From positions 1 through 64,000 of the IMG/VR virus record IMGVR_UViG_3300003322_000128: DNA of 64,000 bases, one strand, 5' to 3'. A program made the translations under genes and the position numbers. The DNA comes from a virus. Under the pieces are notes generated by a model that had not been told where the DNA came from, searched no databases, and saw nothing but the letters and a program-made list of their open reading frames with translations. Positions 1,118 to 47,491 of this stretch are shown piece by piece (the first letter of the stretch is position 1; every line of letters starts with the position of its first letter).

Positions 1118-1174
1118 TTTTGGCGGGGATTCGTCCCCGCAAGCTTTCATTGGTACAACAAAAGGAGATAACCA

Positions 1175-3094
1175 ATGCGACCAAATTCGGCCGTAGCTAC
1201 TCGAATTGGTGACCTTGGTGGAGAAAAGGTTGCCATGTCGTTTGACCAGAACAGTCTTGCTCATATCATGTCTGTTCTGACGGACTTGTATTCTGACCCG
1301 GAGCTTGCTATTGTACGAGAGTACAGCACCAATGCTTGGGATGCACAAGTTCGGGCGGGTGTTACTAGTCCCATTGAAGTTTATACACCAAATTCTCTAA
1401 GCCCTATGTTTAAGGTTAAGGATAATGGTGTTGGAATGAATGCGGATGATATCCGCAAGGTTTATTCTCAGTATGGTGCTTCTACTAAGCGTGATTCTGA
1501 TGAGTTTACAGGAATGCTTGGTCTTGGTTGTAAGGCAGCACTTACTTACACGAATCAGTTCATGGTTAATTCTGTGAAGGATGGAATTCGTACTCAGGTT
1601 GTTGTTTCCCGGACCGAAGATGGTTCTGGTATTATGGAGATTCTTTCTGAGACGGAAACTGATGACAGCAATGGTGTTGAAATCACTGTTCCTGTTAAGA
1701 AGAATAACCTTTTTCACCGCAAGTCTACGGAGTTCTTCAGGTTTTGGCATGAGGGCACTGTCCTTCTTAATGGAGCTGAGCCAGAAAAGATTCAGGGGCG
1801 TAAGCTTACTGATGACCTAATTCTTGTTCCGAACCTTGAGAATGACTTTGTTGTTATGGGTCATGTTGCTTATCCGATTGATAGTGAGCATGCAATTCAT
1901 CGGCGGGACTGGCGTTCCCGTTTTGGTGTTATTGCCAAGGTTCAGATTGGTGATGTAACCTTTACACCATCACGAGAGGCTTTGCAGTATACTATTCGTA
2001 CAGAAAAGACTCTTGATGGGCTGAGGGATAAGTTCGCTCAGAATCTAACTGCGGCGGCGCAGCGCGATATTGACGCCTGTGATAATCACATGGATGCTGC
2101 AAAGGCTTTCTGTGACTGGTCTAAGATTCTTTATGGGCACATTCAGCGTGGACATAAGTTCACTTACATGGATGAGTCTATTCCCACTGAGATTAATATC
2201 AAGGGTGGAATGAATTTCAGACTTCATTATAGTCGCGGTGCTGTTGATGAAGCCCGCTATGAGTCTATTGATTCTCTGACGAATCGTGTGGTAATCTATA
2301 ATTACACGAACGTTGATATCAAGAGTCATAATCGTGAGAAGATTAGGCTGTGGCTTAGTCAGAGTTCCGTTCCTCAAACAAATGTAATTCTTGTTGTGGA
2401 TGAACTTCCTGAGATTTTTGGTAAGTGGGTTAGTGATGAACACACATACGATTGGGAAGATGTAAAGAAGGTTAAGGCTGCTCGACAGACTGTTGAGAGG
2501 ACTGAGCCAACTTATGATGTCTATACTTCTGCGGGATTCCGGTCAATGACACTCAGTACCATTGGTGATGAAAAGGTCAAGGCTATGATTTCTTCAGCTA
2601 AGTTGAAGGAGCTTGACCGAAACTTCATTAGTTGGCTGCGCAAGGAATTTCCAGACATGCACGTTGTGCGACTTGCCAGCAATCGATGGGATAAGTTGCG
2701 GCGGGAACGAAAGAACGTCACCACGGTTCATGAGGTTCTTGTGAAGCACTACAAGAATGTGGTAGACTCTCTTACAGAGGACGACAAGATTTACATGATG
2801 TTGGATTACAACTCAAAGTACATCCTGCCGAATTTGGACGAGTCTGAAGTTCATGACCCCATGCTTGCTAAGATGATTAGGGCTAGCAAGACGCTGGTTG
2901 AATCTGATAATGTTAAGAAGTATCAGGCTGCCAGGACTATGGTGCTGCAATTTGAGTACCTTGATGAAGTTGACCTTGGCGAGATTTATCAGCCATTTGA
3001 AAAGTATCCGCTTCTTAACGCCTTGAATCGTCATGACTACGAAACGTCACGCAATCATGCAATTCAGTATGTGAACATGGTTTACGCGATGTAA
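1175..3094 (+). CDS. rIIA: rIIA-like protein (N-terminal GHKL ATPase)
   Basis: LYSDPELAIVREYSTNAWDA, VKDNGVGM, YGASTK, GMLGLG motifs; followed by an rIIB-like gene. Confidence 0.88.
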   Translation: MRPNSAVATRIGDLGGEKVAMSFDQNSLAHIMSVLTDLYSDPELAIVREYSTNAWDAQVRAGVTSPIEVYTPNSLSPMFKVKDNGVGMNADDIRKVYSQYGASTKRDSDEFTGMLGLGCKAALTYTNQFMVNSVKDGIRTQVVVSRTEDGSGIMEILSETETDDSNGVEITVPVKKNNLFHRKSTEFFRFWHEGTVLLNGAEPEKIQGRKLTDDLILVPNLENDFVVMGHVAYPIDSEHAIHRRDWRSRFGVIAKVQIGDVTFTPSREALQYTIRTEKTLDGLRDKFAQNLTAAAQRDIDACDNHMDAAKAFCDWSKILYGHIQRGHKFTYMDESIPTEINIKGGMNFRLHYSRGAVDEARYESIDSLTNRVVIYNYTNVDIKSHNREKIRLWLSQSSVPQTNVILVVDELPEIFGKWVSDEHTYDWEDVKKVKAARQTVERTEPTYDVYTSAGFRSMTLSTIGDEKVKAMISSAKLKELDRNFISWLRKEFPDMHVVRLASNRWDKLRRERKNVTTVHEVLVKHYKNVVDSLTEDDKIYMMLDYNSKYILPNLDESEVHDPMLAKMIRASKTLVESDNVKKYQAARTMVLQFEYLDEVDLGEIYQPFEKYPLLNALNRHDYETSRNHAIQYVNMVYAM

Positions 3095-3149
3095 TCGCGG
3101 CGGGCTTTATGCCCGCAAGCTTCCTAAGATATCTAATAAGGAGTAATAA

Positions 3150-4109
3150 ATGAGTTTTCCATTTAGCATCTTCCGTTTCTCTGAGTCCGATGAAGTTAAT
3201 CTGACTGCATTCATTGATGGAGAGATGTATTCTTGCACAAGCGGTCATGACAATTATGACCGCATTAAGGAAATGTGCGAAGCGGGCGATGCTTCTGTTG
3301 TTGCCCTGTTCGATGTTTCTGCTGCTGAAGAGCGTTTTCGGCGGCTTTCTGAGCGGGTTTCCATCAGTGGTGGCGTTATCTACTTTGATGGTGAGCCAGT
3401 AAACAATGCTCTAACCGAGCAGGTTGTTCGATTCATTAATGAGGGTGTTGAAGACTTCAATCCTCTGATTCTCTTTTTCGAGAAGGTTCAGACGAATCCA
3501 AATCCTCACAGCCGTGAGCAGCTTTACCGTTGGCTTAACGACAGGTCTTTCACGATTAACCCGGACGGCAACATTCTTGCTTACAAGGGCGTCCGGAAGG
3601 TTGGCGATGCTTATGAGAGCATTCACCACGGTCGTGCTGTTGTAGATGGTGAGGTTCACAATGGTGCCATTCCTAACCCGATTGGCGCGGTTATTGAGAT
3701 GCCTCGCGGAGAAGTTCAGCATGACCCGTCTCGCGGGTGCCATACTGGTCTTCACGCCGGTACGTGGAATTACGCAAGTGGATTTGCTGAGGGTGCAGTT
3801 CTGACTGTCGAGATTAATCCACGGGACGTAGTTTCCGTACCAACGGACTGTCAGGACCAAAAGATGCGCGTTTGCCGGTACACTGTTGTTGAGGTTGTAG
3901 ACCAGGAGCTTCCTGGTGCTCTTCATGGTACGGTTGACACGCCGGATGTTGATGAGTATGATGAAGAGTCTACTGAAGAGGAACTTGGACCAAAGTTTGA
4001 CAACATTCGGAATGTCCAGACGTATCAGCCGGTAGGACATCTGTACACCGTTCCTTATCCTTATGATGAAGATGATGATGACGAGTACGATGCACCCTGG
4101 AATCAGTAA
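3150..4109 (+). CDS. rIIB: rIIB-like protein
   Basis: NPNPHSREQLYRWL, ILAYKGV, CHTGLHAG, INPRDVVSVPTD, KMRVCRY motifs. Confidence 0.88.
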   Translation: MSFPFSIFRFSESDEVNLTAFIDGEMYSCTSGHDNYDRIKEMCEAGDASVVALFDVSAAEERFRRLSERVSISGGVIYFDGEPVNNALTEQVVRFINEGVEDFNPLILFFEKVQTNPNPHSREQLYRWLNDRSFTINPDGNILAYKGVRKVGDAYESIHHGRAVVDGEVHNGAIPNPIGAVIEMPRGEVQHDPSRGCHTGLHAGTWNYASGFAEGAVLTVEINPRDVVSVPTDCQDQKMRVCRYTVVEVVDQELPGALHGTVDTPDVDEYDEESTEEELGPKFDNIRNVQTYQPVGHLYTVPYPYDEDDDDEYDAPWNQ

Positions 4110-4160
4110 TTGATTCCGCCCCCTGAATTGGGGGCAAGCTTTCTAATAAAGGAGAAGGAA

Positions 4161-4343
4161 ATGCTATTCTACATTCAAGAACGTTCGACTGGAAAGCCTT
4201 GCCGACTCGACAGGGATGATAATATTGTTCCATGCGATGACTTTGCCGATATGGTAATCATTCGTGATATGGAATACGCAAGAGGTCTTGTGGCAAACGA
4301 CTACAGGTTTTGTGCAAGGGTATTCTTCGGGCAGATTATCTAA
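4161..4343 (+). CDS. hypothetical protein
   Basis: AAGGAG RBS, ORF. Confidence 0.6.
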   Translation: MLFYIQERSTGKPCRLDRDDNIVPCDDFADMVIIRDMEYARGLVANDYRFCARVFFGQII

Positions 4344-4355
4344 GGAGGTATATTT

Positions 4356-4517
4356 ATGCGAGAATTTGTACGCAAGCTGATGGATAGGGATTGGTACCCT
4401 GAAGACGATGTTCCAGAATTTTCTACGATTGAAGAAGAGGACTTCTGGAAGCCGGGCGGATGGATTGATAATAGGTCACACTGGCAACAGTATGACGAAA
4501 TGCCATGGAATGGATGA
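4356..4517 (+). CDS. small hypothetical protein
   Basis: AAGGAGG RBS, 53-codon ORF. Confidence 0.55.
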   Translation: MREFVRKLMDRDWYPEDDVPEFSTIEEEDFWKPGGWIDNRSHWQQYDEMPWNG

Positions 4518-4520
4518 GTA

Positions 4521-5294
4521 ATGAAGGTTATGGTCCTTGGGGACACACATGGTGAGACTCAGTGGCTGAAGAATATGGTTAATAAGGCCAAGCGAATGGG
4601 TTGTGACCGAATTCTTCAGGTTGGCGATTTTGGTATTTGGACTCACGAAGCAGAGGGTCACCGCTTTCTTGATACTGCAAATGAGGAACTACGACGAAAT
4701 GGTTTGAAGTTGTATTTTCTCGGCGGGAATCATGAAAACTGGGACCACCTCAATTGGTGGGAAAAGAACAACGCGAAGTCTTATCACGGACACGTATATG
4801 TTAGGTCTCACATTCTTTATACCGGGCGAGTTAATCGTTGGGTATGGGGAGAAAAGGGTTCTGAGAAAGTTTTTCAGGTTGTAGGTGGTGCTGTTTCTGT
4901 AGACAAGAATCATCGTACAGTTGGAAAGACTCTGTGGCTTGATGAGGAAATTCCTGAGCGGGTTGTTTATGGACTTGAGAAGGCTAACCGTCCATGTGAT
5001 TATCTGTTCACACACGATGCACCTACCTGTGTTCCGATGAGCAATTTGAAGCCTGACATTGATTCTGCTAGGCATCGTGGATATATGGACCGAATTGGGC
5101 GGGCTACCCGGCCGAACCTTTGGTTCCATGGCCACTATCATAAGTGGATGGAATATTCCTTTATGCACCAGCAGGGCTATTCATTTGTTTATGGGCTTGA
5201 CCGCGATTTCCAATTTTACAGTTATGTGATTTTGGACACAGATTCTGATAGCGTAAAGATGGCAACTGGCAAGGTTATCGAGCACGGGAATTGA
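4521..5294 (+). CDS. calcineurin-like metallophosphoesterase
   Basis: GDTHG, VGDFG, GNHE, THDAP, HGHYH motifs. Confidence 0.9.
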   Translation: MKVMVLGDTHGETQWLKNMVNKAKRMGCDRILQVGDFGIWTHEAEGHRFLDTANEELRRNGLKLYFLGGNHENWDHLNWWEKNNAKSYHGHVYVRSHILYTGRVNRWVWGEKGSEKVFQVVGGAVSVDKNHRTVGKTLWLDEEIPERVVYGLEKANRPCDYLFTHDAPTCVPMSNLKPDIDSARHRGYMDRIGRATRPNLWFHGHYHKWMEYSFMHQQGYSFVYGLDRDFQFYSYVILDTDSDSVKMATGKVIEHGN

Positions 5295-5381
5295 GTCATT
5301 TGCCATTTGAAAATAAACCTTCTATAATTGACTTTATGGAGGTTGAAGCCTCCGAAAGTTTGAAGGAGGTGTAACATTCAA

Positions 5382-5819
5382 ATGGCAAATGATGAAAAGG
5401 CTCCAGAGTCACGTATCCTTTCTAAGGAAGAGCGTGCTGAGGCACTAAAGGCTTCTGATGCTAAGGCTGCAAAGCAGGAGTACAAGCCTTACACGTCAGT
5501 TGACGCCGTTGAACCACATGGTCCACATGGTGTTGAGGAGGCTGCCGCTAAGCGTGCTAAGGATGCTGGTGTGACTGACCCTGCCTTCGTTAATTACGAA
5601 GAGGCTCTAGAGAATTACCAGGCCCGTCCTGACGTTGAGCCACTAAATGAGCGTCGTGCTCGTGAGGGTGGTCGTGATTTCAACGCAGCTTCATTCCGTC
5701 GTGAGGTTGGAGGAACGGACAATGCAGGAGTAACCACTTCTGAGGACGTTTCTACAGATTCTGATGACGACAAGACAGCAAACAAGACTTCCGCTGTTCG
5801 TAAGCCTGCATCTAAGTAA
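5382..5819 (+). CDS. hypothetical acidic protein in its own transcription unit
   Basis: TTGCCA-17-TATAAT upstream, AAGGAGG RBS, terminator downstream. Confidence 0.7.
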   Translation: MANDEKAPESRILSKEERAEALKASDAKAAKQEYKPYTSVDAVEPHGPHGVEEAAAKRAKDAGVTDPAFVNYEEALENYQARPDVEPLNERRAREGGRDFNAASFRREVGGTDNAGVTTSEDVSTDSDDDKTANKTSAVRKPASK

Positions 5820-5837
5820 GTCTAAGAAGTTTGGTGA

Positions 5838-5877
5838 AAACCCGGTGTTGACAAAGCGCCGGGTTTTTGCTTATACT
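5838..5877 (+). terminator. intrinsic terminator with overlapping TTGACA-18-TATACT promoter
   Basis: AAACCCGGTGTT/AGCGCCGGGTTT stem plus T run; TTGACA 5848, TATACT 5872. Confidence 0.7.
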
Positions 5878-5942
5878 AGAAAGCCAGGAGGGAAAATGAA
5901 CTGGTGGTGTAAGAACTGTCATCTATGTGGAAGGCCAAAGGA

Positions 5943-6227
5943 ATGAAGTACCAAGAGGCTGTCAGAGTTTGGGGAGCAAAGAGACTTTCAACAGACAAGA
6001 GGCATGTTAACCCTGATGATGTCATGGTATTCATGGACTTTGATGAAGGATTCGCGTGTTGCGGTGGAACCCAAGAAGGCTGTTATTGTTCTTATGCATA
6101 TGGTCCTTCAGCAAATGTGGTAATTTCTGCCGGGAATTTGAGGGAGACCATCAATGTAGAAGACTTCAACTTTGTTGAAGTTGTAGGAGAAATTGTCAAG
6201 GCTGCCGATGGCATCTTGACAGACTAG
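5943..6227 (+). CDS. hypothetical protein
   Basis: ORF, Cys-rich centre. Confidence 0.55.
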   Translation: MKYQEAVRVWGAKRLSTDKRHVNPDDVMVFMDFDEGFACCGGTQEGCYCSYAYGPSANVVISAGNLRETINVEDFNFVEVVGEIVKAADGILTD

Positions 6228-6240
6228 GGCTTAGGCCCAT

Positions 6241-6315
6241 AACCCGGTAGCTCAGTTGGTTTAGAGCAGCTTCCTTTTAAGTTGCAGGTCGTGGGTTCAA
6301 GTCCCACTCGGGTTA
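6241..6315 (+). tRNA. tRNA-Lys(UUU)
   Basis: Cloverleaf: AACCCGG/TCGGGTT acceptor, CT-TTT-AA loop, GTTCAAGT T arm; two U-U mismatches in the anticodon stem; no CCA. Confidence 0.85.
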
Positions 6316-6385
6316 CTCTTGACACAGACGTGTCAACTTTGTTAAAATACTTGTATGATGCAAATTGAACGAAAGGTAAAGACCT

Positions 6386-6619
6386 ATGCCTAATCTTGGT
6401 TACAAGGCGGCACACCGATTTGTCCGTGAGCAGCGTTCGCTTGGAAACAACGTTCGTTGGGATGGATGGGATATGGTGTTTTGGAAGCCAACGCGCCATG
6501 GCTTCAACAGTGTTAACGGAGCATTTCTTAACGGCCGATGGGGCGTTGAGAGCAGGATTTCCGTTGATACTGACGGTGTGTGGAAGGTCCCTAATAAGAA
6601 TGTCAAGTCTTCTCGATGA
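6386..6619 (+). CDS. hypothetical protein
   Basis: ORF with RBS downstream of a TTGACA promoter. Confidence 0.65.
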   Translation: MPNLGYKAAHRFVREQRSLGNNVRWDGWDMVFWKPTRHGFNSVNGAFLNGRWGVESRISVDTDGVWKVPNKNVKSSR

Positions 6620-6914
6620 ATTTGGACTAGACCCTGACGATTTTGAATGGCAAGACTTGGCCTTGTGTGCTAATATGCCTACATCATTCTTTTACGATAA
6701 ATATGAGACTGATGAAGAAACGGCAAAGGCAACTGACCAAGTCTGCCTTCATTGTCCAGTAATGAAACGGTGTTTCTTTGCAGGTGCAGACGGAGAGCAC
6801 GGTGTTTGGGGCGGGGTTTATTGGAATGGTGCTGGAAATCCAGAAAAGAATAGAAACTCTCACAAAACCCAAGAAATTTGGGATGAGATTCAAAGTGTGG
6901 TGAAAAACACATGA
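6600..6914 (+). CDS. whiB: WhiB-family Fe-S transcription factor
   Basis: WQDLALC...FF...VCLHCPVMKRC...GVWGG: four Cys plus the GVWGG turn. Confidence 0.9.
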   Translation: MSSLLDEFGLDPDDFEWQDLALCANMPTSFFYDKYETDEETAKATDQVCLHCPVMKRCFFAGADGEHGVWGGVYWNGAGNPEKNRNSHKTQEIWDEIQSVVKNT

Positions 6915-7165: not shown

Positions 7166-7169
7166 CCGA

Positions 7170-9399: not shown

Positions 9400-9428
9400 G
9401 CCGGATTCATAAAGAGTCCGGCATTTTT
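9400..9428 (+). terminator. intrinsic terminator
   Basis: GCCGGATTC/GAGTCCGGC stem followed by ATTTTT. Confidence 0.7.
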
Positions 9429-10395: not shown

Positions 10396-10548
10396 CACTC
10401 CTGGTTGCCTGTGGTAGTATTTAAGTGTGGGTCGAAGAAGAACGGTTATCAAACTAATTATGGGTAAACACATCGTTCTTCGCTTTTATATCCACACATG
10501 ACTTCTAGTATATTTGACATTAGAAGTCAAGCTTGTTATAATTCATCT

Positions 10549-10983: not shown

Positions 10984-11054
10984 GCGCTATTAGCTCAACA
11001 GTAGAGCGCCAGTCTTCCAAACTGGATACGCGGGGGCGGCACCCGCATAGCGCT
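10984..11054 (+). tRNA. tRNA-Gly(UCC), non-canonical D and T loops
   Basis: GCGCTAT/ATAGCGC acceptor, CT-TCC-AA loop; T loop GGCGGCA. Confidence 0.75.
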
Positions 11055-11059: not shown

Positions 11060-11085
11060 GCCCCGGAAAAGTTCCGGGGCATTTT
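11060..11085 (+). terminator. intrinsic terminator
   Basis: GCCCCGGAA/TTCCGGGGC stem followed by ATTTT. Confidence 0.65.
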
Positions 11086-11682: not shown

Positions 11683-11731
11683 AAAATCCGGGCGGGTTGG
11701 CTTGACTCGCCTAAGCTGCTATAATATACTC

Positions 11732-12734: not shown

Positions 12735-12776
12735 ACAACCCGCCCGGAAACGGGCAAGCTTTGAAGGGAGATTGTT

Positions 12777-13267: not shown

Positions 13268-13311
13268 TAAACTGCCCGAAAGGGCAAGCTTTCATAACAG
13301 GAAGGTTGACA

Positions 13312-14623: not shown

Positions 14624-15047
14624 GTATACTGATAAGACCGACGTTGATAGCAGTCTTGCCACGACTGTATATTACAATTCTGGCAATGAGACGATGGCCA
14701 TTGAGTTTCACAATGGCGGGTCTGCAATTTACGGCAGCGTGCCCGAGGGATTTTACAAGGGATTTGTAACCCTTGAAAGCATCGGCGGAACGTACAACAG
14801 TTTCGTTAAGAAGACTTTCCCTAATGTAAGTGATGGGACTGTTTACGATGTAAACTATGTTGACGTCAATTCTAAGAAGCCAACTCATCGCTATATGGTG
14901 AAGGGTTATGTACGCCACTTCGGTACATTTACGGCCGGAAGTGATGAAGAGGCACGTCAGCAGTTCCTTGACAGCCTTCATGATGATGGCTATGATGGTG
15001 CCGACCTTGCGGTAACGGAGGTGTACATTCTTGAGTCAGGTTCATAA
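14604..15047 (+). CDS. KTSC-domain protein
   Basis: VDSS...YYNS...MAIEFHNGG..Y..VP...Y..F...ESIGG.YN pattern. Confidence 0.7.
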   Translation: MKTATFEYTDKTDVDSSLATTVYYNSGNETMAIEFHNGGSAIYGSVPEGFYKGFVTLESIGGTYNSFVKKTFPNVSDGTVYDVNYVDVNSKKPTHRYMVKGYVRHFGTFTAGSDEEARQQFLDSLHDDGYDGADLAVTEVYILESGS

Positions 15048-15342
15048 TGCTCGGTCTATTGCTGAGCTAACGGAACTGATGAACAACAATGATGAACTTG
15101 TTGTTGATTTCAGTAAGTCAGTTGGTTGTGTTTACTGTACTAGGCTGAAGCCTCATTTTGAAAAGGCAGCCGCGAAGTCTGATAAGACTTTTGTGGTTGT
15201 TGACCTTCTTGAGGTTCCTGATGCCATTAATGCATATGGTATTCAGTCAGTCCCTACTGTTCTGCACTTTAAGGTAGGGGAACAGACTGCTGTTATTACT
15301 GGCCGAACATCCGTCACAATCCTCAGGGAGCTTGGCGAATAA
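15031..15342 (+). CDS. thioredoxin-like protein
   Basis: VVDFS...CVYC, YGIQSVPT. Confidence 0.85.
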   Translation: MSQVHNARSIAELTELMNNNDELVVDFSKSVGCVYCTRLKPHFEKAAAKSDKTFVVVDLLEVPDAINAYGIQSVPTVLHFKVGEQTAVITGRTSVTILRELGE

Positions 15343-15400
15343 TTCGGGGCGGGTGTAAAAACCCGCAAGCTTTCAATTTTAAAATTTAAAGGAGAATCAG

Positions 15401-16153: not shown

Positions 16154-16182
16154 GGGCTAGGGAGAAATCCCTGGCCCTTTTT
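16154..16182 (+). terminator. intrinsic terminator
   Basis: GGGCTAGGGA-GAAA-TCCCTGGCCC followed by TTTTT. Confidence 0.75.
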
Positions 16183-17679: not shown

Positions 17680-17783
17680 TTACCAAGAGAGGGGTTGACA
17701 GCTCCTCTCAAGCTAGTTAGAATAGAAAAAGAATAAAACAACTTATAGCAAAGATATAGAATCAAAGAGAATAGATAATAATT

Positions 17784-17972: not shown

Positions 17973-18027
17973 TTTGGCGGGGTTTCGTAAAGAGACCCCA
18001 AGCTTTGTCTACATAAGGAGAGATATA

Positions 18028-19838: not shown

Positions 19839-19881
19839 TATCCCGCCCCGAAAGGGGCAAGCTTTCTGATTGGAGAATAAC

Positions 19882-20495: not shown

Positions 20496-20531
20496 CGGTG
20501 CTGCGGGGCAACCCGCAAGCTTGGAGGTATT

Positions 20532-21324: not shown

Positions 21325-21610
21325 AACTCTTGAGGTACAATAGACTCAGGAGGCAATATGGAAGGTGAGCTAATTTCCGTGGACCAGGTATGGTTTGGAA
21401 TTCGAGAACCAGAATGGTGGCCGGAAGACGAAGAAGATTTTGAAGAAAGACTTTTTGTGCCAAAAAAGGTGACCTTTCGTAAAGAGCTAAAAATTCGGCG
21501 CAAAAATTAGACCTTTCGTAAAGGGCCTATTTGCCCCATTCAGGGGCAAGCTTGAATGTATATATGAACACGCATGCGTGATACCATACTTCGGTTGAGG
21601 AATCAAGAGG

Positions 21611-22684: not shown

Positions 22685-22730
22685 GGTAACGTTGTTGGGG
22701 AGGATAAACCTCCCCAACTGAGAGGAAAAA

Positions 22731-24134: not shown

Positions 24135-24210
24135 TCTGTGAATAGAGGGGCTATCTCATAAACGGGATAGCCCCTCAAGCTTTTGTATTGTATAATGAGG
24201 AGATAAAGCG

Positions 24211-24375: not shown

Positions 24376-24414
24376 GAATACATGGGGAAGTAATTCCCCA
24401 AGCTTGAAGGAGGA

Positions 24415-25277: not shown

Positions 25278-25354
25278 TCTTCTGGTGGGGCTTGACAGCC
25301 TCACCAAGCTTAGGTAGGGTTCTCTCAAGAAGCCCGGAAGAAAGGCAAGGAAAA

Positions 25355-26020: not shown

Positions 26021-26247
26021 TAAATTGGGCCGGGTTGCAAATCAACCCGGCCCAAGCTTATTTAAGGAGATGCAATGCGAATCATTGAATGGCTTTTCAA
26101 GCTGGTAATTTACACCACCTGTGGTGTTCTTGGCGGCGTGGTAGGTTTCTGGGGTTCAGTGTGGATTGTGTCACACATGTGACCACATCACGGGGTTGAC
26201 GTTCAACCCCAAGCTTGTTAGACTTGCACCAACGAATGGAGGTAAAG

Positions 26248-26667: not shown

Positions 26668-26745
26668 TTGTAAGTATGGTACCCTAGTGAAATCCGTTAC
26701 CCCAGAAATGGGGTAACGCGCACTAAACTTAGGAGATATTTTAAT

Positions 26746-27213: not shown

Positions 27214-27265
27214 GACCTCAAAATCAGAAATACGCGGGGTGTTTTCCCTTGACACCCCGCAAGCT

Positions 27266-27445
27266 ATGAACAACCTAATTATTGCAGGAATCGCATCCTT
27301 TGTCATGGCATTTGTTTGCCTGATGGCTTCTACAATTCTAGAGGGGTTCGAAATGTTTGCTGCCGGATTTTTTGCGGCGGCTGTGTATTGGATACTTGCA
27401 GGCATGTTGCCCGATGGTGTTGACAGCCCCGAAGCAAGCGAGTAG
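27266..27445 (+). CDS. small membrane protein
   Basis: Two TM segments; ATG abuts AAGCT; no RBS. Confidence 0.5.
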   Translation: MNNLIIAGIASFVMAFVCLMASTILEGFEMFAAGFFAAAVYWILAGMLPDGVDSPEASE

Positions 27446-27481
27446 GGTAGTAACCAGAAAGCTTCAATTTGAGGAGAAAAA

Positions 27482-27724
27482 ATGTATCACAAGATTGCCG
27501 CTAGGAAGTCACTCGCTGCACTGGCTAACTTCTTTATCTGTGCGGTAAATGCCTCACTTGCATGGGTTTCCTACAATGCAGGAAGCTCATTGTATGGAGT
27601 GAACATCATTTTCAGCATCTTCAGCGCAATTCTTGCCCTTGGTAACTTTTTCGGTTACCTTGATGCCAAGGATAGGGCGAATGCCGAAGACATGTACAAT
27701 GAGGTTTACGGACGTCGTCGTTAG
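27482..27724 (+). CDS. membrane protein
   Basis: GAGGAG RBS, two TM segments. Confidence 0.65.
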   Translation: MYHKIAARKSLAALANFFICAVNASLAWVSYNAGSSLYGVNIIFSIFSAILALGNFFGYLDAKDRANAEDMYNEVYGRRR

Positions 27725-27768
27725 CAATACCGGCCCGAAAGGGCCAAGCTTTCTGAATAGGAGAAGAA

Positions 27769-27996: not shown

Positions 27997-28053
27997 ACTG
28001 GCAACATCGCCCCAGAGATGGGGCAAGCTTTCATAGAGACCAAGGAGAATGAA

Positions 28054-29222: not shown

Positions 29223-29270
29223 TATGATGGGGTGGAAACACCCCATCAAGCTTTCAACAAAGGAGACGAA

Positions 29271-29567: not shown

Positions 29568-29647
29568 AATACCGCCCGATGAAAATCGGGCAAGCTTGCT
29601 ACAACACACAGTACAAAGATTGGCTGTGTTGCTTTCTAGGAGGATAG

Positions 29648-30885: not shown

Positions 30886-31049
30886 TGCCAAGTTGTCCAA
30901 GATGCAGGAAAAGCGATAAGGTACAAAAATCAAAGTCTAGGTCCATTTTAATCAAATTCATCTGTAAGAGATGCAATCACGAATTTGAGGCGCCTTGATT
31001 TTGCGGGGGTGGGCTTTCCACCCCCAAGCTTGTCTACATAGGAGAAAAA

Positions 31050-31241: not shown

Positions 31242-31302
31242 CCTATTGACAGGCAGATGAAAGTCTGCCAAGCTAGCACTACCAACAGCAAGGAGGTAGG
31301 AG

Positions 31303-31743: not shown

Positions 31744-31848
31744 GGTAGTAACACGTAAAACGGTGGGGCAAGGTGAGATAAGTTCCCCAAACTCCACCAA
31801 GCTTTCTAAACTGCCGATGACCCCGGAATGAAAATTCCGGGCGAGGAC

Positions 31849-31924
31849 AGCCCCAATAGCATAATCCCGGCGAATGCGCCTTTAGAATAGTAGGAGATAG
31901 CAGGTTCAAATCCTGCTGGGGTTG
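31849..31924 (+). tRNA. tRNA-like RNA with aberrant anticodon arm (identity undetermined)
   Basis: AGCCCCA/TGGGGTT acceptor, GCAT/ATGC D stem, GCAGG-TTCAAAT-CCTGC T arm; anticodon stem only 3 bp. Confidence 0.6.
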
Positions 31925-32410: not shown

Positions 32411-32476
32411 GATTTATGCTGGGGATGAAAATCTCCAGCAAGCTTGCAACATCGACATTCTAATTAAGGAAACAAA

Positions 32477-32689: not shown

Positions 32690-32746
32690 TAATCCGGCCG
32701 GATTTATTCCGGCCAAGCTTTCAACAACAAATGTGAGGTAAATTAA

Positions 32747-33602: not shown

Positions 33603-33669
33603 CTGACCAGCCCAGTCTTGATAGACTGGGCAAGCTTCAGAAGGAACCATATCCTTTAAGGAAGAGAGT

Positions 33670-34066: not shown

Positions 34067-34345
34067 CTAATTCGCCCGGCTGTGATAACATGGCCGGGTA
34101 AGCTTCCAACAAACAATGGAGAATAAAAATGAGTGAGTTTGACAAGAGTGTGGATGAGCTTTTCGACACTGCTGCTCGATGGAGTAAGGGAATTGTAGTA
34201 GCGTCTGTCGTTCTGGCCCTGGGGGTCCTGAGCGTTGTTCTTTGGGCCATTATTTCTCTGGTCCTTCACTTCACGTGAAATTTCGGCGGGTTGAAAAATC
34301 CGCCAAGCTTTAGCACCATCGTAAGGAGAGAAATGTATTGTCGCT

Positions 34346-35782: not shown

Positions 35783-35849
35783 GCATACCTAACCAGGGAG
35801 CCGGACAACCGGCTCCCTTTTCTATGCCTGCTAAAAGGTTGAATTCTGT

Positions 35850-41130: not shown

Positions 41131-41132
41131 AA

Positions 41133-41471: not shown

Positions 41472-41477
41472 CCAGCA

Positions 41478-41837
41478 ATGGCATGGGTTGAATTCACGCC
41501 GGGTGTTCCGGACATTGTCCGCGAATACCAAAGCAAGGTTGAGGACACAGAAAATGGAATCACCCTTTATGAAAACATCGGGTTGATTTCGGCAATTCGA
41601 AAGTCCGGGGACCGCTACTGGATTTACGAAACGGATTTCCGGGAAATGCTGGAAATTGACGTCACGGAATTGCAGCCGGGTGATGTTATCTGGCATTGCT
41701 TGGATGACGGCCCGGTTAAGAGTCACGAACCGTATTCGTCATATCCGACTGAGGAATTGGTTTCTTTTCGGTCTGGCACAGCTGAACGGTTCGGCAAGCC
41801 GCAAAAGTTGGGTGTTTTGAGGGGTGGGCAGTTTTAG
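41478..41837 (+). CDS. hypothetical protein
   Basis: GAGGGG RBS. Confidence 0.65.
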   Translation: MAWVEFTPGVPDIVREYQSKVEDTENGITLYENIGLISAIRKSGDRYWIYETDFREMLEIDVTELQPGDVIWHCLDDGPVKSHEPYSSYPTEELVSFRSGTAERFGKPQKLGVLRGGQF

Positions 41838-41937
41838 GCAGTAGATTGGTACATAGCTTGCTACAAAAAGGGGCTGTGTGCCTTTCTAGGGCCCCGGACA
41901 ATCGAGCCGGGGTCATTGCCTAGGGGAGGTCCTGAAA

Positions 41938-42294
41938 ATGGCTTACAGCGCAACTGAGTGCAAGGGTGACGGCATGGGGGACTACGGGCGTCCCTGCAAC
42001 GGATACGCGCGTACCGAATCGCCGTGTGCGGTATGCCTGCTGGCACACAAGCTCTATTCCACTGAAGAGAATTCGGCCGGGTTTGTTGAGGTAGAAGAGA
42101 CAGATAACTTCCCCATTACAGTAATTGCCTATAGAGGAATAAACACAGTAACAGTGAAGGGTATTCGCTGTGACTCAATCAGTACTCAGGTAGACAAGCG
42201 GGGCAATGCCCATCTGTCCTTTGAGTTCTACGAGAATGCAAACCGAATCGGTTACATTCCTTGCGTCGATTGGTACGAGACGGTATGCGAGTAA
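41938..42294 (+). CDS. hypothetical protein
   Basis: GGAGG RBS. Confidence 0.6.
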   Translation: MAYSATECKGDGMGDYGRPCNGYARTESPCAVCLLAHKLYSTEENSAGFVEVEETDNFPITVIAYRGINTVTVKGIRCDSISTQVDKRGNAHLSFEFYENANRIGYIPCVDWYETVCE

Positions 42295-42683
42295 AGGTAT
42301 GCAGGAAGTGTGCCCATGACATACCCCATCCTTTGGCACATTGGCATGTGTGGTGCCGTTACTGCCATAGGGTAAGGGTATTCAGGGGACCTAGCTGTAA
42401 GGTCTGTTACAGGAAGGCTAGGGCCCTTGTAGCAGACCTGTTCAAATAGGAACTACCCACTATCTTTTGGAAAGCACTAACTAAAAGTTAGTGTAAATGT
42501 AGGGTATTTGTGCGGCTATCTAGGCGCAATTAAGCCGCATTTCTGCCTGAATTCGGGCAAAAACAAGGGAAAAAGCATGTATTCGCTTGCATTTCTTGCA
42601 ATTACGGCCCTTTTCCTGATTGCCGCCTACTTTGCCGGGGTATTGCCGGGCGGTATTCAGTAGATACAGAAAGGTAAATACAC

Positions 42684-42971
42684 ATGCCTATTGCTATTCA
42701 GTATATGGATAGGCCCAATTCTCCTAATGGTGCATACTATGGGGGGTATTGTGTGAATGATGGTAGCAATACCGTATTCATAGAAACCCGGGCTGCAAAT
42801 AATCTCTTGCCTGTATATGCATGGCTAGGTAATGGAGATAGGGCTATTGGCAGGGAGGTCTATAAGACAGCTCTAGTTATGCCTAGCGTTACTCTCAATG
42901 CCAAGCAGTACAATACCTTGGTATGTTCTATTCCTACTCATGAGCAGAGGGCATATAGCAAAGGAGATTGA
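42684..42971 (+). CDS. hypothetical protein
   Basis: GAAAGG RBS. Confidence 0.55.
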   Translation: MPIAIQYMDRPNSPNGAYYGGYCVNDGSNTVFIETRAANNLLPVYAWLGNGDRAIGREVYKTALVMPSVTLNAKQYNTLVCSIPTHEQRAYSKGD

Positions 42972-43373
42972 GACAGAAATTCCCCCGAATTCTCCTGAAA
43001 TCAATAGGGGAAAGGCAATTGCAGCTAGTTCTATAACTGTAGTTGTGGGAAGTGGCTTTTCTGCCTTGGTCATCATTGCAGTCTCGTTTATCCTGGTCAC
43101 AATTCTTTGTGTCCTATGGGGCGTAGGGATTGCTATTTCGGCAGTATAGGAATTCTTTAGTGGGACCCCCGAGATAATTTCAAATGGGTCCCCCGAATTC
43201 TTTTTGAATTCAATATGCATTTGCTTTTATGGGCGCACTAATTGCAAGTGCGAATTCTATTTGCCGGCCTATATCATACATCTACAAAATTTTTTAACAT
43301 TTTGAATCTGGAAATTAGGTTACTTTGAGTTGATTGTAGCTAACTGAGAGTAATGGTCTGTAAACATAGAAAA

Positions 43374-43401
43374 TCCCCACACCCTTTTTGGGTGTGGGGA
43401 A
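43374..43401. terminator. hairpin or terminator at the convergence of the + and - blocks
   Basis: TCCCCACACCC-TTTTT-GGGTGTGGGGA. Confidence 0.6.
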
Positions 43402-43670
43402 GTCTTTCATGAATAAATCTGTGCATGCTTCTTACACATCATTCTCAAAACGCCTCTGAAGAAAACTTTTTGAAATGGTTTATTTTGACATCTTGCCATG
43501 AAGCATTTGTTGTCGTTTCCTGACCTGTCTTCTCTCTTTGGTCCGCTATGTCCCATAGTATTCCTTACTATGTTTTTTACATAGGAGGAGTGTTCTTCCT
43601 CTTACTTTTGTCTTATAAACCCGGCCGGATTTCTTACATAGGAAACACTTGCCAGTTAACTTCTCTTCGC

Positions 43671-43877
43671 TCATTCTTCCTCCATAGAAAATGCGGGATT
43701 AGGGGTAAAGGTCAATCCCTTCTCATGCATATCCGCCAATTGTGTAGCCTTAACAGGGTCATGTACAGACAACAAAGCAAGGTTGATATCATACAGTCTC
43801 ATAAGCATAATCAAGAGTACTGTTTGAAAATTTTCCGGGTCAAAAGCGAAGCCCGGCTGGATTTCTTCCTCACTCAT
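43671..43877 (-). CDS. hypothetical protein
   Basis: ORF in the minus-strand block. Confidence 0.6.
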   Translation of the reverse strand: MSEEEIQPGFAFDPENFQTVLLIMLMRLYDINLALLSVHDPVKATQLADMHEKGLTFTPNPAFSMEEE

Positions 43878-44033
43878 TGAATAAACAACAACTTATCATT
43901 ACGGTCTAGAACACACTTCAAATGCCCCACGAAAATATAGTTGGCGCCCTCTACTGTATTGGCACCAATCTTCTTTGCATACTTAATAATGTCCTTCTTG
44001 TTCTTACAACGAAGAAGGAGCTTTGCATTTGGT

Positions 44034-44249
44034 TCACTCACTGTATTCCTTCAATCTTTCAATCAAATCATGTAGAGCTTGATTTGCCAGGGCTGTGGCG
44101 GATGTAAGAGGTGGATACATTACCTTGTCTGACATATGAAGCCCGGCGTTTGCCTCGCTTTGTATTTGCAGATACTTTGTAACCTTCTCAAACACGCCCT
44201 CAACCTTTTCTAGCTCTCTAATCAAATCTTCGTTTTTCAAATTCTTCAC
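44034..44249 (-). CDS. hypothetical protein
   Basis: ORF in the minus-strand block. Confidence 0.55.
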   Translation of the reverse strand: MKNLKNEDLIRELEKVEGVFEKVTKYLQIQSEANAGLHMSDKVMYPPLTSATALANQALHDLIERLKEYSE

Positions 44250-44871
44250 CTATATATCTTGTATATGCTGGAGGAATGGCTTCGTTGATTTCTTTTGTAA
44301 TCATCCAGTCAATTCCCATAGCTGCCCTCTTTGCCGCGATAGGAGCATTTCCTCCGCCTGTTACCTGAACGAACATATCATCAGTCAATGGCCGTCCAAA
44401 ATGATGCTTTCGTTTATCGAATGTATATACGAGTGCTGTGTGCTTTGGATGGTCTGGTTGTTTCAGAGACCAATTAGTCTCAAATAGTCTATGCCTGTAG
44501 ACTCTAAGCCCCTTGAACATCCCGCCGCAAAGCATCACCGGCTGCTCCAATGGAGCAGTATCTACATTCTCAATAACGTAAGGCAATCCAGAGTCCTGTA
44601 GCATTTCCCTCACAGGTTTAATTAGGTCTGGATATTCCTTGCCTGTTCGTTTTTGCAAGTCGCTGTATTTTTGGCAGGGAGGCGATGCGTGTACAAGGTC
44701 GAATCGACCAGACATCATCATACGCCAACCTACAGAAAGAGCGTCACCCAATACGAAATTGAAAGGGTAACGCACTTGAAAACGATTGTCAACACCGACA
44801 ACCTCAAATCCAGCTTGGTGATAGCCCATTGCACTACCACCAGCTCCGCTAAACAAATCCAATACTCTCAC
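44218..44871 (-). CDS. DNA cytosine-5 methyltransferase
   Basis: LDLFSGAGG, HASPPCQ, VIENV, R.HRLFE, EAIPPAY. Confidence 0.88.
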   Translation of the reverse strand: MRVLDLFSGAGGSAMGYHQAGFEVVGVDNRFQVRYPFNFVLGDALSVGWRMMMSGRFDLVHASPPCQKYSDLQKRTGKEYPDLIKPVREMLQDSGLPYVIENVDTAPLEQPVMLCGGMFKGLRVYRHRLFETNWSLKQPDHPKHTALVYTFDKRKHHFGRPLTDDMFVQVTGGGNAPIAAKRAAMGIDWMITKEINEAIPPAYTRYIGEEFEKRRFD

Positions 44872-45110
44872 GAATCAATTTTATCAGATTCTGCGGGCTT
44901 TGTCTCTGTCCATTCGAAGAAATTCTTTACATAAATCACTAGATAAACTACACATACTATAATAAACGGATATTGCTTAGTAAAGTATGCGTAAAGAATC
45001 CATAGGATTTGGTAAAGCGCTCCGATGGCCCATCCCCATCTGTTCTTCTTGCCAGCGATGTAGACACCAATGATGCCTACAGCCGCCAAAATCCAGCTAA
45101 AAAGTTCCAT
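44868..45110 (-). CDS. PnuC-like membrane protein
   Basis: Three TM segments; G....G.K.RWGW.IG...QILW...A..T.QY. Confidence 0.6.
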   Translation of the reverse strand: MELFSWILAAVGIIGVYIAGKKNRWGWAIGALYQILWILYAYFTKQYPFIIVCVVYLVIYVKNFFEWTETKPAESDKIDS

Positions 45111-45304
45111 CAGCTAAGCTGCTTCACTACATGCTCAGCTACTGAAATAATTGTTCCTTGAGTGTCCTCACTCTGGTAAATCTTTACAAGAGCGTTACCC
45201 CTCATATAATTTGAGGCAGCAAGGAATTCCCTTATTTCAGAAAGAGTGACTTCTCCATTGCGACCAACGTTCATTTCTACTTTCGTCTTTACAATGCTTG
45301 ACAT
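45110..45304 (-). CDS. hypothetical protein
   Basis: Overlapping start and stop codons. Confidence 0.55.
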   Translation of the reverse strand: MSSIVKTKVEMNVGRNGEVTLSEIREFLAASNYMRGNALVKIYQSEDTQGTIISVAEHVVKQLS

Positions 45305-46071
45305 TACTTGTCCTTAATAGTTTCCATACATACAGGGAAGTGTTCGTGTGTCAACTCCCACACTCCCTTGGCGTAATCCTGAATTTCCTTCTGAGCATCA
45401 TGCTCAAGTCTCTGGTGAAGGAAATGAGTTAGAGCGCCAAGAGAGCAAGTCCAGCGCCAACGGACATAAAGTCCATAAGCGGGGAGAAATAGTCTTGCTT
45501 GCTCAGCACAAACACCATTAGCCATGGCGGAGTCATAAAGGTCAACGCTCTTACGGACAAGCTCTGTAAGCTCGTCTGACCAGAAGTTTCCGTACTCCTC
45601 AGCAAAATCGTCCCTAACATCAAGTGAATAGTCGTTGTATCGCCAAGCACCCCACTCAACATCATCAAGTGACTTGAGAGGTTCGCTTGAACCCTGCTTC
45701 TTGTTCTCTGGAGCAGAGCGCCACTCATTTGGTGCAGGAACATAAAATTCTGGGATTTCAGTTACATAACGACGACTCGACTCATTCCAACCATTCTGGT
45801 CCTCAAGATGAGTGGACGCTACTGCGTACTTCCACCACTGTCTTGCAACGAAGAGTGGTGCATAAACCTCAAAAGTGAGAGCGGAATGACGGAACACTGA
45901 GGAGTGCTCTTCACGTTGAAGAAAGGCGAGAAGTCGTGCCTCTCTATCTCCAAACTCTGCTGACTCCTTGGCAAAGGAAACTTTTGCTGAGTTCACTGGG
46001 TCCAAATCGTCACCCATGTGCTTAATGTATCTTACATAGCCCTTGTCAAGGACTTCAATCTTATCTATCAT
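45304..46071 (-). CDS. thyX: flavin-dependent thymidylate synthase
   Basis: HSSVFRH, PLFVARQW, NESSRRY, EQARLFLP, AQKEI. Confidence 0.92.
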   Translation of the reverse strand: MIDKIEVLDKGYVRYIKHMGDDLDPVNSAKVSFAKESAEFGDREARLLAFLQREEHSSVFRHSALTFEVYAPLFVARQWWKYAVASTHLEDQNGWNESSRRYVTEIPEFYVPAPNEWRSAPENKKQGSSEPLKSLDDVEWGAWRYNDYSLDVRDDFAEEYGNFWSDELTELVRKSVDLYDSAMANGVCAEQARLFLPAYGLYVRWRWTCSLGALTHFLHQRLEHDAQKEIQDYAKGVWELTHEHFPVCMETIKDK

Positions 46072-46282
46072 ATGTATTTCCCAAAACGTGTCTCATAAGT
46101 GCTTCGTGCTTGTTTGTCATTTCGTACTTTCGGCGGGCTTCGTCATAACCCGCCATAATTGCATTAGCGAACCAGCCATGCATCATGTCTTCATCAATTT
46201 GCAGATTGCCATCTTCAACAACCTTCATAAATTCTTCTGCCCAAGCAAGCGCGTCGGTGTTTGATGTATCGAAGTGAGTCAT
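46061..46282 (-). CDS. hypothetical protein
   Basis: DALAWAEEF...GWFANAIMAG. Confidence 0.65.
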   Translation of the reverse strand: MTHFDTSNTDALAWAEEFMKVVEDGNLQIDEDMMHGWFANAIMAGYDEARRKYEMTNKHEALMRHVLGNTYDR

Positions 46283-46460
46283 TGAATCTTATTCAAGTCA
46301 TTCTGAAGTTTCTTGATTTTATTCTCAGCGCGCTTGGCACCAACTTCATTGCCCTCACGCTTATGCTGCTCAAGAATAGCCTTCTGATGATTAATCAGAT
46401 TCGTCAGCCTCAGTGCCTCTAGCATCGAGCCCATTTACAACCTCCTCAAACTTCTTAGAG

Positions 46461-46718
46461 TCATTGACCTTTTCCTGAGTGACGTAGAAAGCTCCATCGT
46501 CGTCCTGTTCGAATGGAATTCCGTCTGCGCCAATAACGACGTTTCCCACTTTGTCTCCTTTTCATAACAATCCAGCCCTTTTCTTGACATTGCCAGCAGG
46601 GTTGGAATACGTAGTTATCCATGTCCAGAACAGACTTTCGAATCTGACAAACTGGACATGCGTAATCATGTTGTGCAAACAGGCCATCGGTTAGAATCTT
46701 TGGCTTATGCATCTTCAT
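46461..46718 (-). CDS. hypothetical zinc-binding protein
   Basis: CPVC...CWQC. Confidence 0.55.
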   Translation of the reverse strand: MKMHKPKILTDGLFAQHDYACPVCQIRKSVLDMDNYVFQPCWQCQEKGWIVMKRRQSGKRRYWRRRNSIRTGRRWSFLRHSGKGQ

Positions 46719-46937
46719 TGCTACTTCCTTTCTCGGAAGAGCCTTACAATTTCCTTATTGATTTTCTCAATTGCTTCGCGTGCCCTGCGCATACCAAGTT
46801 CATCGCCTGAATTTCTTGCGGCCTCATACTTGGTTGCCTGGACTACCTTATCTTGCTTGAGATTTTGAAGTGTTTTCTTTCTGGACATAAAAATGCCGCT
46901 GTGAATACAGCGGCGGGTCTCCTTTTCTATTCACAAG

Positions 46938-47010
46938 AGCCTAGTGTGAGAATCGAACTCACGACCTCTTCCGTACCAAGGAAGCGTTCTTCCACTGCAA
47001 CTAACTAGGC
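46938..47010 (-). tRNA. tRNA-Thr(GGU)
   Basis: GCCTAGT/ACTAGGC acceptor, TT-GGT-AC loop, GTTCGATT T arm. Confidence 0.88.
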
Positions 47011-47061
47011 AAGTATAAGCTTGCCGGTATCAAGAAAGGAGAATAAAAAGATACCGACCAG

Positions 47062-47133
47062 AGCCAAATAACGGATTCGAACCGTTTTCTCATCTTTACG
47101 AGAGATGCGTTTTTCCTATTAAACTAAGCTGGC
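47062..47133 (-). tRNA. tRNA-Thr(CGU)
   Basis: GCCAGCT/ATTTGGC acceptor, CT-CGT-AA loop, GTTCGAAT T arm. Confidence 0.85.
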
Positions 47134-47138
47134 AAGAG

Positions 47139-47210
47139 AGCCGCCTGGGGATTCCGAGACCCCGACCTGTGCTTTACAAGAGCACTGCTCTGCCTCTGAG
47201 CTAAGGCGGC
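47139..47210 (-). tRNA. tRNA-Thr(UGU), atypical T arm
   Basis: GCCGCCT/AGGCGGC acceptor, CT-TGT-AA loop; T arm GGGGT-CTCGGAA-TCCCC. Confidence 0.8.
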
Positions 47211-47329
47211 AACGCCAGTATATCACATAGCTTCCCCTCAGGGCAAGATTTCTGTCGCATTCAGTCCTCTTGGTAACATACTGGTAAGTTGGTTCCGTTA
47301 ACAACGACCAACGGTTTCCGAAATGTCTC

Positions 47330-47403
47330 GTGCGCCCCTAGAGACTTAAACTCCAGACTACCAGCGTATCAGGCATGGCGTGCAATCGTAACACTAGAGC
47401 GCA
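47330..47403 (-). tRNA. tRNA-Ile(GAU)-like, atypical
   Basis: TGCGCTC/GGGCGCA acceptor, bulged anticodon stem with CT-GAT-AC loop, TTTAAGT T loop. Confidence 0.55.
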
Positions 47404-47491
47404 TGCGGTCAGTTTCTATTTCAACTATTTCATCAATCTGACCAAGCTTGGGATGCTTTGTTCGAAGCCCCATCCCTAGGCCAGTTACTAC

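Follow-up and report, generated by a model that had tools for sequence, protein, structure and literature searches.

A lineage-specific hairpin-AAGCUU punctuation element in the RNA of Loccivirinae-like Streptomyces phages

Between the small, variable and mostly orphan genes of the large lytic T4-type phages lie the elements named PeSLs, in which a stop codon is followed by a GC stem-loop with G.U pairs, a Shine-Dalgarno sequence (SD) and a start codon; the stem-loop may sit between the -35 and -10 boxes of a promoter, and the elements form the boundaries of insertions and deletions (PMC2839356, PMC4122927). Here, we describe an element that shares these features, a GC-rich hairpin of variable sequence directly abutted on its 3' side by AAGCU(U), in the first 64 kb (the window) of a 98.8-kb virus contig from a root metagenome (IMG/VR record IMGVR_UViG_3300003322_000128). 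PeSLs are the closest described system, and their stem-loop has demonstrated termination activity (PMC2839356, PMC4122927). In total, we conclude that the hairpin-AAGCUU unit is a real, strongly selected and lineage-specific RNA punctuation element.

The phage was traced to eight sequencing runs, all of DNA or of unknown type and most of them from one root-metagenome study, and to no RNA run. The window has a G+C content of ~45% and belongs to a Streptomyces phage that is Loccivirinae-like within the Stanwilliamsviridae: its closest relatives, at ~71-75% nucleotide identity, are the Streptomyces phages Faust, Sham, TunaTartare, Blueeyedbeauty, Annadreamy, Gilson and Comrade, which their records place in this subfamily and family. 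Positions 1-35.7 kb are collinear with the right "small-gene arm" of Faust and encode rIIA, rIIB, tRNAs, an RNA ligase, an Lsr2-like protein, a phosphoesterase and many orphans; 35.7-47.5 kb correspond to the terminal-repeat region, and the virion genes start at 48 kb.

AAGCTT occurs 59 times in the window compared with 22.8 ± 5.0 times in shuffled sequences, a 2.6-fold excess that none of 100 shuffles reached. Of the 79 copies of AAGCT on the + strand of 1-36 kb, 35 directly abut a GC-rich hairpin; because hairpin ends make up only 1055 of these 36,000 positions (~3%), about two such copies are expected by chance. Moreover, AAGCT was by far the most frequent 5-mer directly after hairpin ends. 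One match of the scan, at 27583 (AAGCTC), lies inside a coding region and was discarded as a false positive, and two weaker or longer stems with AAGCT at 13286 and 31799 also fold and were added. The final tally on the + strand between 1.1 and 35.2 kb is 36 elements (30 with AAGCTT and six with AAGCTG or AAGCTA), compared with the 29 and six of the initial annotation, which had reported the elements with correct examples and coordinates. Two elements on the minus strand (47017 and 47444) both fold, as had been claimed, and lie where tRNA-Thr and the neighbouring genes run leftward; the orientation of the elements thus follows transcription, again as first described.

The element has a fixed order, i.e. 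stop codon, short A/U-rich spacer, stem, variable loop, AAGCU, leader, SD and start codon. The stem is 5-13 bp long, its closing pair has G in 94% and C in 88-93% of the elements, and the folding energy of the hairpin has a median of -12.2 kcal/mol (range -8.8 to -24.4). GAAA is the loop in 11 of 35 elements (~30%), followed by UUCG and others, consistent with the GNRA and UUCG loops that had been noted initially. AAGCU is followed by U in 70-80% of the elements and then by weakly conserved (U/G)(C); the leader comprises 9-50 nt in most elements and is A-rich, and the start codon mostly lies 15-45 nt past AAGCUU. The register is tight on both sides of the hairpin. AAGCT follows the stem with an offset of 0, offsets of -1 or -2 occur only where its first A's can pair with upstream U's, and offsets of at least +1 are at background level. 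Similarly, the spacing from stop codon to stem is 6 nt in 13 of 35 elements, 7 nt in seven, and 3-10 nt in 27, the outliers being due to small open reading frames (ORFs) missed by a crude gene caller. A structure that starts ~13 nt past the first base of the P-site codon sits at the mRNA entry channel of the ribosome. Therefore, the hairpins lie as near to the stop codon as possible without being melted by the terminating ribosome.

Among the internal stem positions of 122 unique elements from six genomes, the non-Watson-Crick positions comprise 28 G.U, one A.C and one other combination; by contrast, hairpin-like sites without AAGCT in the same DNA have G.U, A.C and other combinations in the ratio 72 : 23 : 135. 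The excess of G.U over A.C argues for selection on folding of the sense RNA, as the initial annotation had proposed from G-U wobbles on that strand. Moreover, in 19 ortholog families defined by both flanks, AAGCT is kept and the stems have changed by compensatory substitution or by wholesale replacement, e.g. GGGCC-gaaa-GGCCC versus GCCGGGU-uuucau-AACCGGC. In the family of the element at 24145, RNAalifold predicted 13 pairs, none of them broken and four with double changes. As for the loops, GNRA and UUCG are stable on the sense strand only. Altogether, these comparisons identify the elements as a structure-plus-sequence signal selected in sense-strand RNA.

The elements are concentrated in the small-gene arm, and only two lie at 48-98 kb of the contig, where the virion and replication genes are. 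Counted on the + and - strands, there are 57 and 3 elements in Faust, 41 and 12 in Comrade, and 38 and 3 in the 98.8-kb contig itself; in Sham, TunaTartare, Blueeyedbeauty and Francob, the homologous stretch has a density of 1.3-1.5 elements per kb. The adjacency of hairpin and AAGCT, for which the initial annotation had suggested a conservation check, is thus kept in six related phages. By contrast, Samisti12, a member of the Boydwoodruffvirinae in the same family that has the same S. griseus strain as host as Comrade, has the motif at background level only (three on the + and five on the - strand). The GC hairpins of Samisti12, with UUCG or CGAA loops, have U-rich tails and are often followed by a TTGACA...TAnnnT promoter. 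At two orthologous junctions, i.e. after rIIB and after the window ORF 15031-15342 (the position of the thioredoxin gene of Faust), Samisti12 has a hairpin, a U-rich tail and a promoter where the window has a hairpin and AAGCUU; three other orthologous junctions have no hairpin in Samisti12. In five complete Streptomyces chromosomes, the one stem class searched for, GCCC-loop-GGGC followed by AAGCT, was not enriched (21 matches versus 40 in the reversed control). Based on its presence in Loccivirinae, its lack in Samisti12 and the lack of enrichment in the five Streptomyces chromosomes, we conclude from these genomes that the hairpin-AAGCT signal is specific to one phage subfamily.

The elements of the window are as follows.
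1123-1146 (+): GCGGGGA-UUCG-UCCCCGC followed by AAGCUU, upstream of rIIA
3100-3122 (+): intergenic element between rIIA and rIIB; the Faust ortholog has AAGCTA
4118-4141 (+): element 3' of rIIB; hairpin, U-rich tail and promoter at the Samisti12 site
10500-10534 (+): element on a sigma-70-type promoter, with TTGACA in the loop, N17, and TATAAT 2 nt after AAGCTT
11690-11718 (+): AAGCTG element on a promoter, upstream of tRNA-Gln
12742-12761 (+): GCCCG-GAAA-CGGGC followed by AAGCUU
13273-13291 (+): short-stem element with a GAAA loop
14139-14167 (+): AAGCTG element holding the CUUUCGUAAAG mini-hairpin; the Faust ortholog has a different stem
15349-15372 (+): element; Samisti12 has a hairpin, a UUUUG tail and a promoter after the orthologous gene
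17687-17715 (+): AAGCTA element on the promoter TTGACA-N17-TAGAAT
17979-18005 (+): element before the RNA ligase gene; the Faust ortholog has a shorter stem and a UUCG loop
18688-18713 (+): GGCCAGAU-GAAA-AUCUGGCC followed by AAGCUU; the Faust stem differs by compensatory changes
19845-19864 (+): element identical in Faust
20503-20522 (+): element with an SD (GGAGG) abutting AAGCUU
21533-21553 (+): element of a five-member ortholog family with three unrelated stems and a fixed AAGCTT
24145-24182 (+): element with a 13-bp stem; four of 13 pairs covary in four phages, none broken
24384-24405 (+): element with an SD 2 nt past AAGCUU
25284-25311 (+): element on the promoter TTGACA(loop)-N17-TAGGGT, with an ortholog in Francob
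26027-26059 (+): element with an 11-bp stem
26192-26216 (+): element on the promoter TTGACG-N17-TAGACT
27234-27266 (+): AAGCTA element with orthologs in Faust, Sham and TunaTartare
27732-27751 (+): GGCCC-GAAA-GGGCC followed by AAGCUU
28009-28030 (+): element with a GAGA loop
28279-28301 (+): element with one G.U pair
29226-29253 (+): element 3' of the phosphoesterase gene; in five relatives, conservation is limited to the upstream flank
29574-29597 (+): element with only the downstream flank conserved (GCUACAACACACAG...); the slot is the SprT-cassette boundary in Sham and TunaTartare
31005-31031 (+): element with a 9-bp stem
31252-31275 (+): AAGCTA element with TTGACA directly 5' of the stem; covarying stems in the Sham and TunaTartare orthologs
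31762-31804 (+): longer imperfect hairpin followed by AAGCUU, just 5' of a tRNA-like module
32418-32445 (+): element with a GAAA loop and one G.U pair
32696-32720 (+): element
33610-33637 (+): element
34074-34105 (+): element with an 11-bp stem and three G.U pairs
34285-34310 (+): element with a GAAA loop
34757-34784 (+): AAGCTG element with a GAAA loop
35206-35231 (+): last element of the arm, with a GAAA loop
47017-47058 (-): element between tRNA-Thr genes, with a 9-bp stem, an 18-nt loop and AAGCUU
47444-47476 (-): GGGAUG...CAUCCC followed by AAGCUU

A second sense-strand motif, (C)CUUUCGUAAAG(G), forms a mini-hairpin with the stem CCUUU/AAAGG and the loop CGU, and occurs in seven copies compared with 1.15 expected (11939, 14145, 17982, 18720, 21474 and 21513 on the + strand and 47094 on the - strand); two copies lie inside hairpin-AAGCT elements, and the motif is also present in Faust. 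A scan of the window against Rfam at the gathering score detected tRNAs only and no family matching the element. The tRNA matches include one at 10984-11054 (+; 55.5 bits) that is absent from the ARAGORN list, as well as a marginal tRNA-like match at 31850-31923 (+; 31.7 bits versus a gathering score of 29) just after the element at 31762-31804.

Sigma-70-type promoters are superimposed on five of the 35 elements (10500, 11690, 17687, 25284 and 26192), with TTGACA in the loop or the 3' arm, AAGCTN in the 17-nt spacer and TAnnnT 2-6 nt later, an arrangement that is kept in the Faust 30499 family. Between the remaining 30 elements and the next start codon, there is no promoter of this type. Moreover, an SD (GGAGG) lies immediately 3' of AAGCUU in the element at 20503-20522 and 2 nt after it in the element at 24384-24405, and the same is the case in their orthologs. 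With an SD abutting AAGCUU and no promoter downstream, translated transcripts must cross the elements. Therefore, the elements are not efficient unconditional terminators, and AAGCTT is not the -10 box of the translated mRNA; accordingly, the alternative of a CAAGCT -10 element, raised in the initial annotation, is disfavoured. Similarly, the elements were rejected as canonical intrinsic terminators: the GC-rich hairpin is present, but the 7-9 nt U-tract is replaced by AAGCUU(U/G)(C), and only three elements pass a criterion of five T's in eight positions. U-tract terminators are present in the arm only at 9400-9422, 11060-11080, 16154-16177 and 35795-35818, where they follow tRNAs or close gene blocks. 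In the virion and replication modules, terminators with an A-tract, a hairpin and a U-tract lie at 52408, 53462, 60070, 65817, 82689 and 88848 and, in agreement with the initial annotation, are the only class at the virion genes. The small number of U-tract terminators in the arm suggests that it consists of a handful of transcription units, each with many elements.

Several other sites resemble parts of the element. At 5832-5880, a hairpin of 14 bp whose loop contains TTGACA is followed by UUUUUGC and TATACT, i.e. a terminator/promoter composite of the Samisti12 type with a U-tract replacing AAGCU. At 27420-27464 (+), AAGCTT lies 10 nt past the -10 box of a promoter (TTGACA-N17-TAGGGT), near the likely 5' end of the transcript, with no hairpin. 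Strong intergenic hairpins lie at 22694-22718 and 26695-26718 (+; -19.5 and -17.3 kcal/mol, z ~ -4) with neither AAGCU nor a U-tract. Finally, the terminal-repeat region (35.7-47.5 kb) has no AAGCU element on the + strand, and 36-48 kb hold 32 other hairpins.

The initial annotation had suggested a check of whether breakpoints of gene gain and loss coincide with the elements, and this check was positive. The two flanking genes are still adjacent at 18 of 88 element junctions compared with 74 of 136 junctions with no element, counted as junction-by-relative comparisons by tblastx with a homolog of at least one flank; these comparisons are not independent, and the control is imperfect in that most of the junctions with no element are overlapping gene pairs. 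Pairs of elements share only the upstream flank in 115 cases, only the downstream flank in 83 and both in 39. Sham, Faust and Blueeyedbeauty carry a gene for an SprT-like protease that TunaTartare lacks; the Sham/TunaTartare indel is bounded by two elements (L002 8409-8992 in Sham versus L003 8444-8526 in TunaTartare), and the unit lost is exactly one hairpin-AAGCTT-leader-ORF-stop. By these comparisons, the elements delimit gene cassettes, as PeSLs do in T4-type phages.

Any explanation of the element has to account for selection on the sense RNA, a unit of structure and sequence with zero spacing, placement just outside the terminating ribosome, read-through, and the coexistence of true terminators. 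These facts lead us to favour, tentatively and at somewhat less than an even chance, that the elements are intercistronic marks for RNA processing and stability. In such a mechanism, in which we infer a cut, an enzyme and a stabilising effect, the elements in the sense transcript would serve as 3' boundary marks for the individual gene cassettes of the arm; transcription from a few sigma-70-type promoters would pass through most of them, and the hairpin, 6-7 nt past the stop codon, would remain folded on translated mRNA. The single-stranded AAGCU(U) abutting the closing G-C pair would be the recognition or cut site of an endoribonuclease, for which host RNase E cutting at AAG↓CUU would be the simplest candidate and a lineage-specific phage factor would be equally possible. 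Upon cutting, the upstream cistron would gain a 3' hairpin that blocks 3' exonucleases, and the protected ends would give each cistron its own half-life. Of the interpretation in the initial annotation, the structure-plus-sequence signal in sense RNA stands, and the cut or factor-controlled termination is a candidate.

Mycobacterial RNase E prefers RN↓CNU in vivo as well as in vitro, and it cuts single-stranded RNA with an enrichment between genes (PMC10641625). AAG↓CUU fits this pattern, and the predicted probability that GCUU is unpaired is 0.36-0.45. Several observations weigh against processing by RNase E. The pattern is degenerate, i.e. about one random hexamer in 16 fits it, and positions other than the C contribute little to cutting (PMC10641625); thus, an invariant of six letters calls for more than RNase E alone. 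The predicted accessibility of GCUU is moderate. Moreover, hairpin-AAGCT is not enriched in the five Streptomyces chromosomes (21 versus 40), and Samisti12 lacks the element in an S. griseus host that it shares with Comrade. As neither the host genomes nor the sister phage use the motif, a phage factor or a lineage habit fits better than a host enzyme, and a phage-encoded reader of the element is a serious possibility. In a specific version, which we consider unlikely, a Loccivirinae-specific phage protein would read "closing G-C pair plus AAGCU" as a universal cistron-boundary code and would cut or cap some 40-57 sites per genome, so that individually stabilised mRNAs of the size of single genes, as well as tRNA precursors, would arise from one or a few long transcripts, with a logic analogous to histone stem-loop or Cas6-type processing. 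By tblastn, 59 ORFs of Faust are common to Comrade and absent in Samisti12; Pfam searches with ten of these 59 gave no endoribonuclease, sigma factor, polymerase or RNA-binding domain, which counts against the favoured reading, and matched an RNA ligase, a C5-methylase-like N terminus, a DEDD exonuclease, a dNMP kinase, a nucleotidase, ThyX and a transglycosylase.

A 217-residue ORF in the terminal-repeat region (44221-44871, - strand) matches with its first 80 residues the N-terminal part of C5 cytosine DNA methylases (PF00145, E 5e-9); it is present in Faust and Comrade and was not found in Samisti12 by tblastn. AAGCTT contains AGCT, an AluI-type site.

Alternatively, and as the main rival, the elements could be conditional or leaky terminators or attenuators, at which RNA polymerase would need a factor (a phage protein, NusA or NusG) to stop or pause, or would be released by a phage antiterminator, giving temporal or graded expression along the arm; we regard this as possible, if on balance unlikely. 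Terminators with no U-rich tail are said to have been described by Ingham in 1995 in phage phiC31. A GC hairpin just past the stop codon is in a terminator-like position, Samisti12 has a hairpin, a U-rich tail and a promoter at some orthologous or analogous sites, and the five elements fused to promoters resemble the terminator/promoter composites of T4 (PMC2839356); however, the elements lack the U-tract that mycobacterial RNA polymerase requires (PMC3993855), most of the arm would be silenced by an efficient stop, given that 30 of 35 elements have no promoter ahead of the next gene, and a second class of terminator would need a reason in a genome that has true U-tract terminators. Improbable, in our judgement, is that the elements are PeSL-like recombination motifs at cassette boundaries, in which the shared GC hairpin and AAGCTT would provide short homology for the exchange of small genes and the RNA structure would be a by-product of a role as terminator or attenuator. 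The low synteny at element junctions (18/88 versus 74/136), the two elements flanking the SprT indel of Sham and TunaTartare, and the many element pairs that share one flank (115 upstream and 83 downstream, with 39 sharing both) are as such motifs would predict; by contrast, homologous recombination would have a poor substrate in six bases and a variable stem, the SprT junction is not within AAGCTT but upstream of the hairpin, and the G.U asymmetry indicates selection on RNA. Moreover, viable breakpoints are always intergenic, and the junctions with no element, being mostly overlapping genes, are an imperfect control.

A role in translation, in which a hairpin at the ribosome entry channel and an AAGCU-led unstructured leader would uncouple cistrons or provide a standby site for re-initiation, would suit the tight 6-7 nt from stop codon to stem, which is also the spacing of recoding stimulators, as well as the short distance from AAGCUU to the start codon (mostly 15-45 nt) and the A-rich leaders. 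We consider it very improbable: it leaves the invariant AAGCU unexplained, and elements also flank tRNAs and overlap promoters where there is no upstream terminating ribosome (11690 and 47017). Finally, AAGCTT could be a -10-like box for a phage-modified polymerase, a proposal that accounts for the orientation along transcription and for the one ortholog family (31252) with TTGACA 18 nt upstream of AAGCTN, and that we nevertheless find hardly credible. The clear promoters have AAGCTN in the spacer, with TTGACA in the loop on one side and an ordinary TAnnnT on the other, a DNA box needs no zero spacing to a hairpin of variable length, an SD abuts AAGCTT in the two conserved cases, and the lineage-specific proteins tested included no sigma factor or polymerase.

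Other candidates were set aside. An integron attC-like single-strand DNA recombination site is at odds with the 28 G.U to one A.C, which point to sense-strand RNA. A lambda-type nut site (boxA/boxB) has a conserved loop that is bound by N and occurs once per operon near the promoter, whereas the loops here vary and ~36 sites are spread along the arm. On geometry or sequence, we dropped RNase III (the stems are too short), an RNase P or Z mini-helix (no RCCA and no 12-bp stack) and pairing of AAGCUU with the 3' end of 16S rRNA; self-cleaving ribozymes were discarded for too few conserved bases, and kissing of the AAGCUU palindrome because a G or A at position 6 disrupts it in the variants.

If the elements are marks for processing or stability, they would reveal how dosage is set for dozens of small accessory genes in a 130-kb phage that has few promoters, and they would provide a compact, portable cistron terminator of ~25 nt, placed 6-7 nt past the stop codon, for Streptomyces operon design. 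If a phage factor reads them, it would be a new RNA-binding protein or nuclease with specificity for both sequence and structure, and the whole would be a virus-encoded mRNA punctuation system. The elements mark units of gene gain and loss in these phages, and as an aid to annotation, a small ORF is better supported if its stop codon is followed at 6-7 nt by a hairpin with AAGCT.

The initial annotation had called the element undescribed, and the literature searched, including the genome announcements for the family, holds no account of it; none of the systems with which we compared it has a fixed hexamer in a fixed register at 40-57 sites. PeSLs all contain a sigma-70 promoter, compared with five of 35 elements here, and have no invariant hexamer abutting the stem. 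In selective RNA processing and stabilisation, intercistronic hairpins lie beside RNase E cuts and stabilise the upstream segments in single cases such as pap, puf and malEFG-REP. These cases and the elements have in common a stable intercistronic hairpin followed by a site that is, or in the elements may be, single-stranded; the fit of AAG↓CUU to RN↓CNU (PMC10641625) is weak. They differ in that the former are single sites with no fixed sequence or register, and the latter are 40-57 copies of a six-letter invariant at zero spacing. Canonical terminators, both of Samisti12 and of the phage's own virion genes, similarly have a GC hairpin with a UUCG or GNRA loop just past the stop codon; they carry a 7-9 nt U-tract where the elements carry AAGCU(U), and most of the elements are read through. 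Finally, intercistronic C(UUCG)G hairpins were reportedly described in T4 by Tuerk et al. in 1988, and these are likewise extra-stable tetraloops recurring between the genes of a large phage; in the T4 hairpins it is the loop that is conserved, whereas in the elements described here the loops vary and the 3' flank is conserved.

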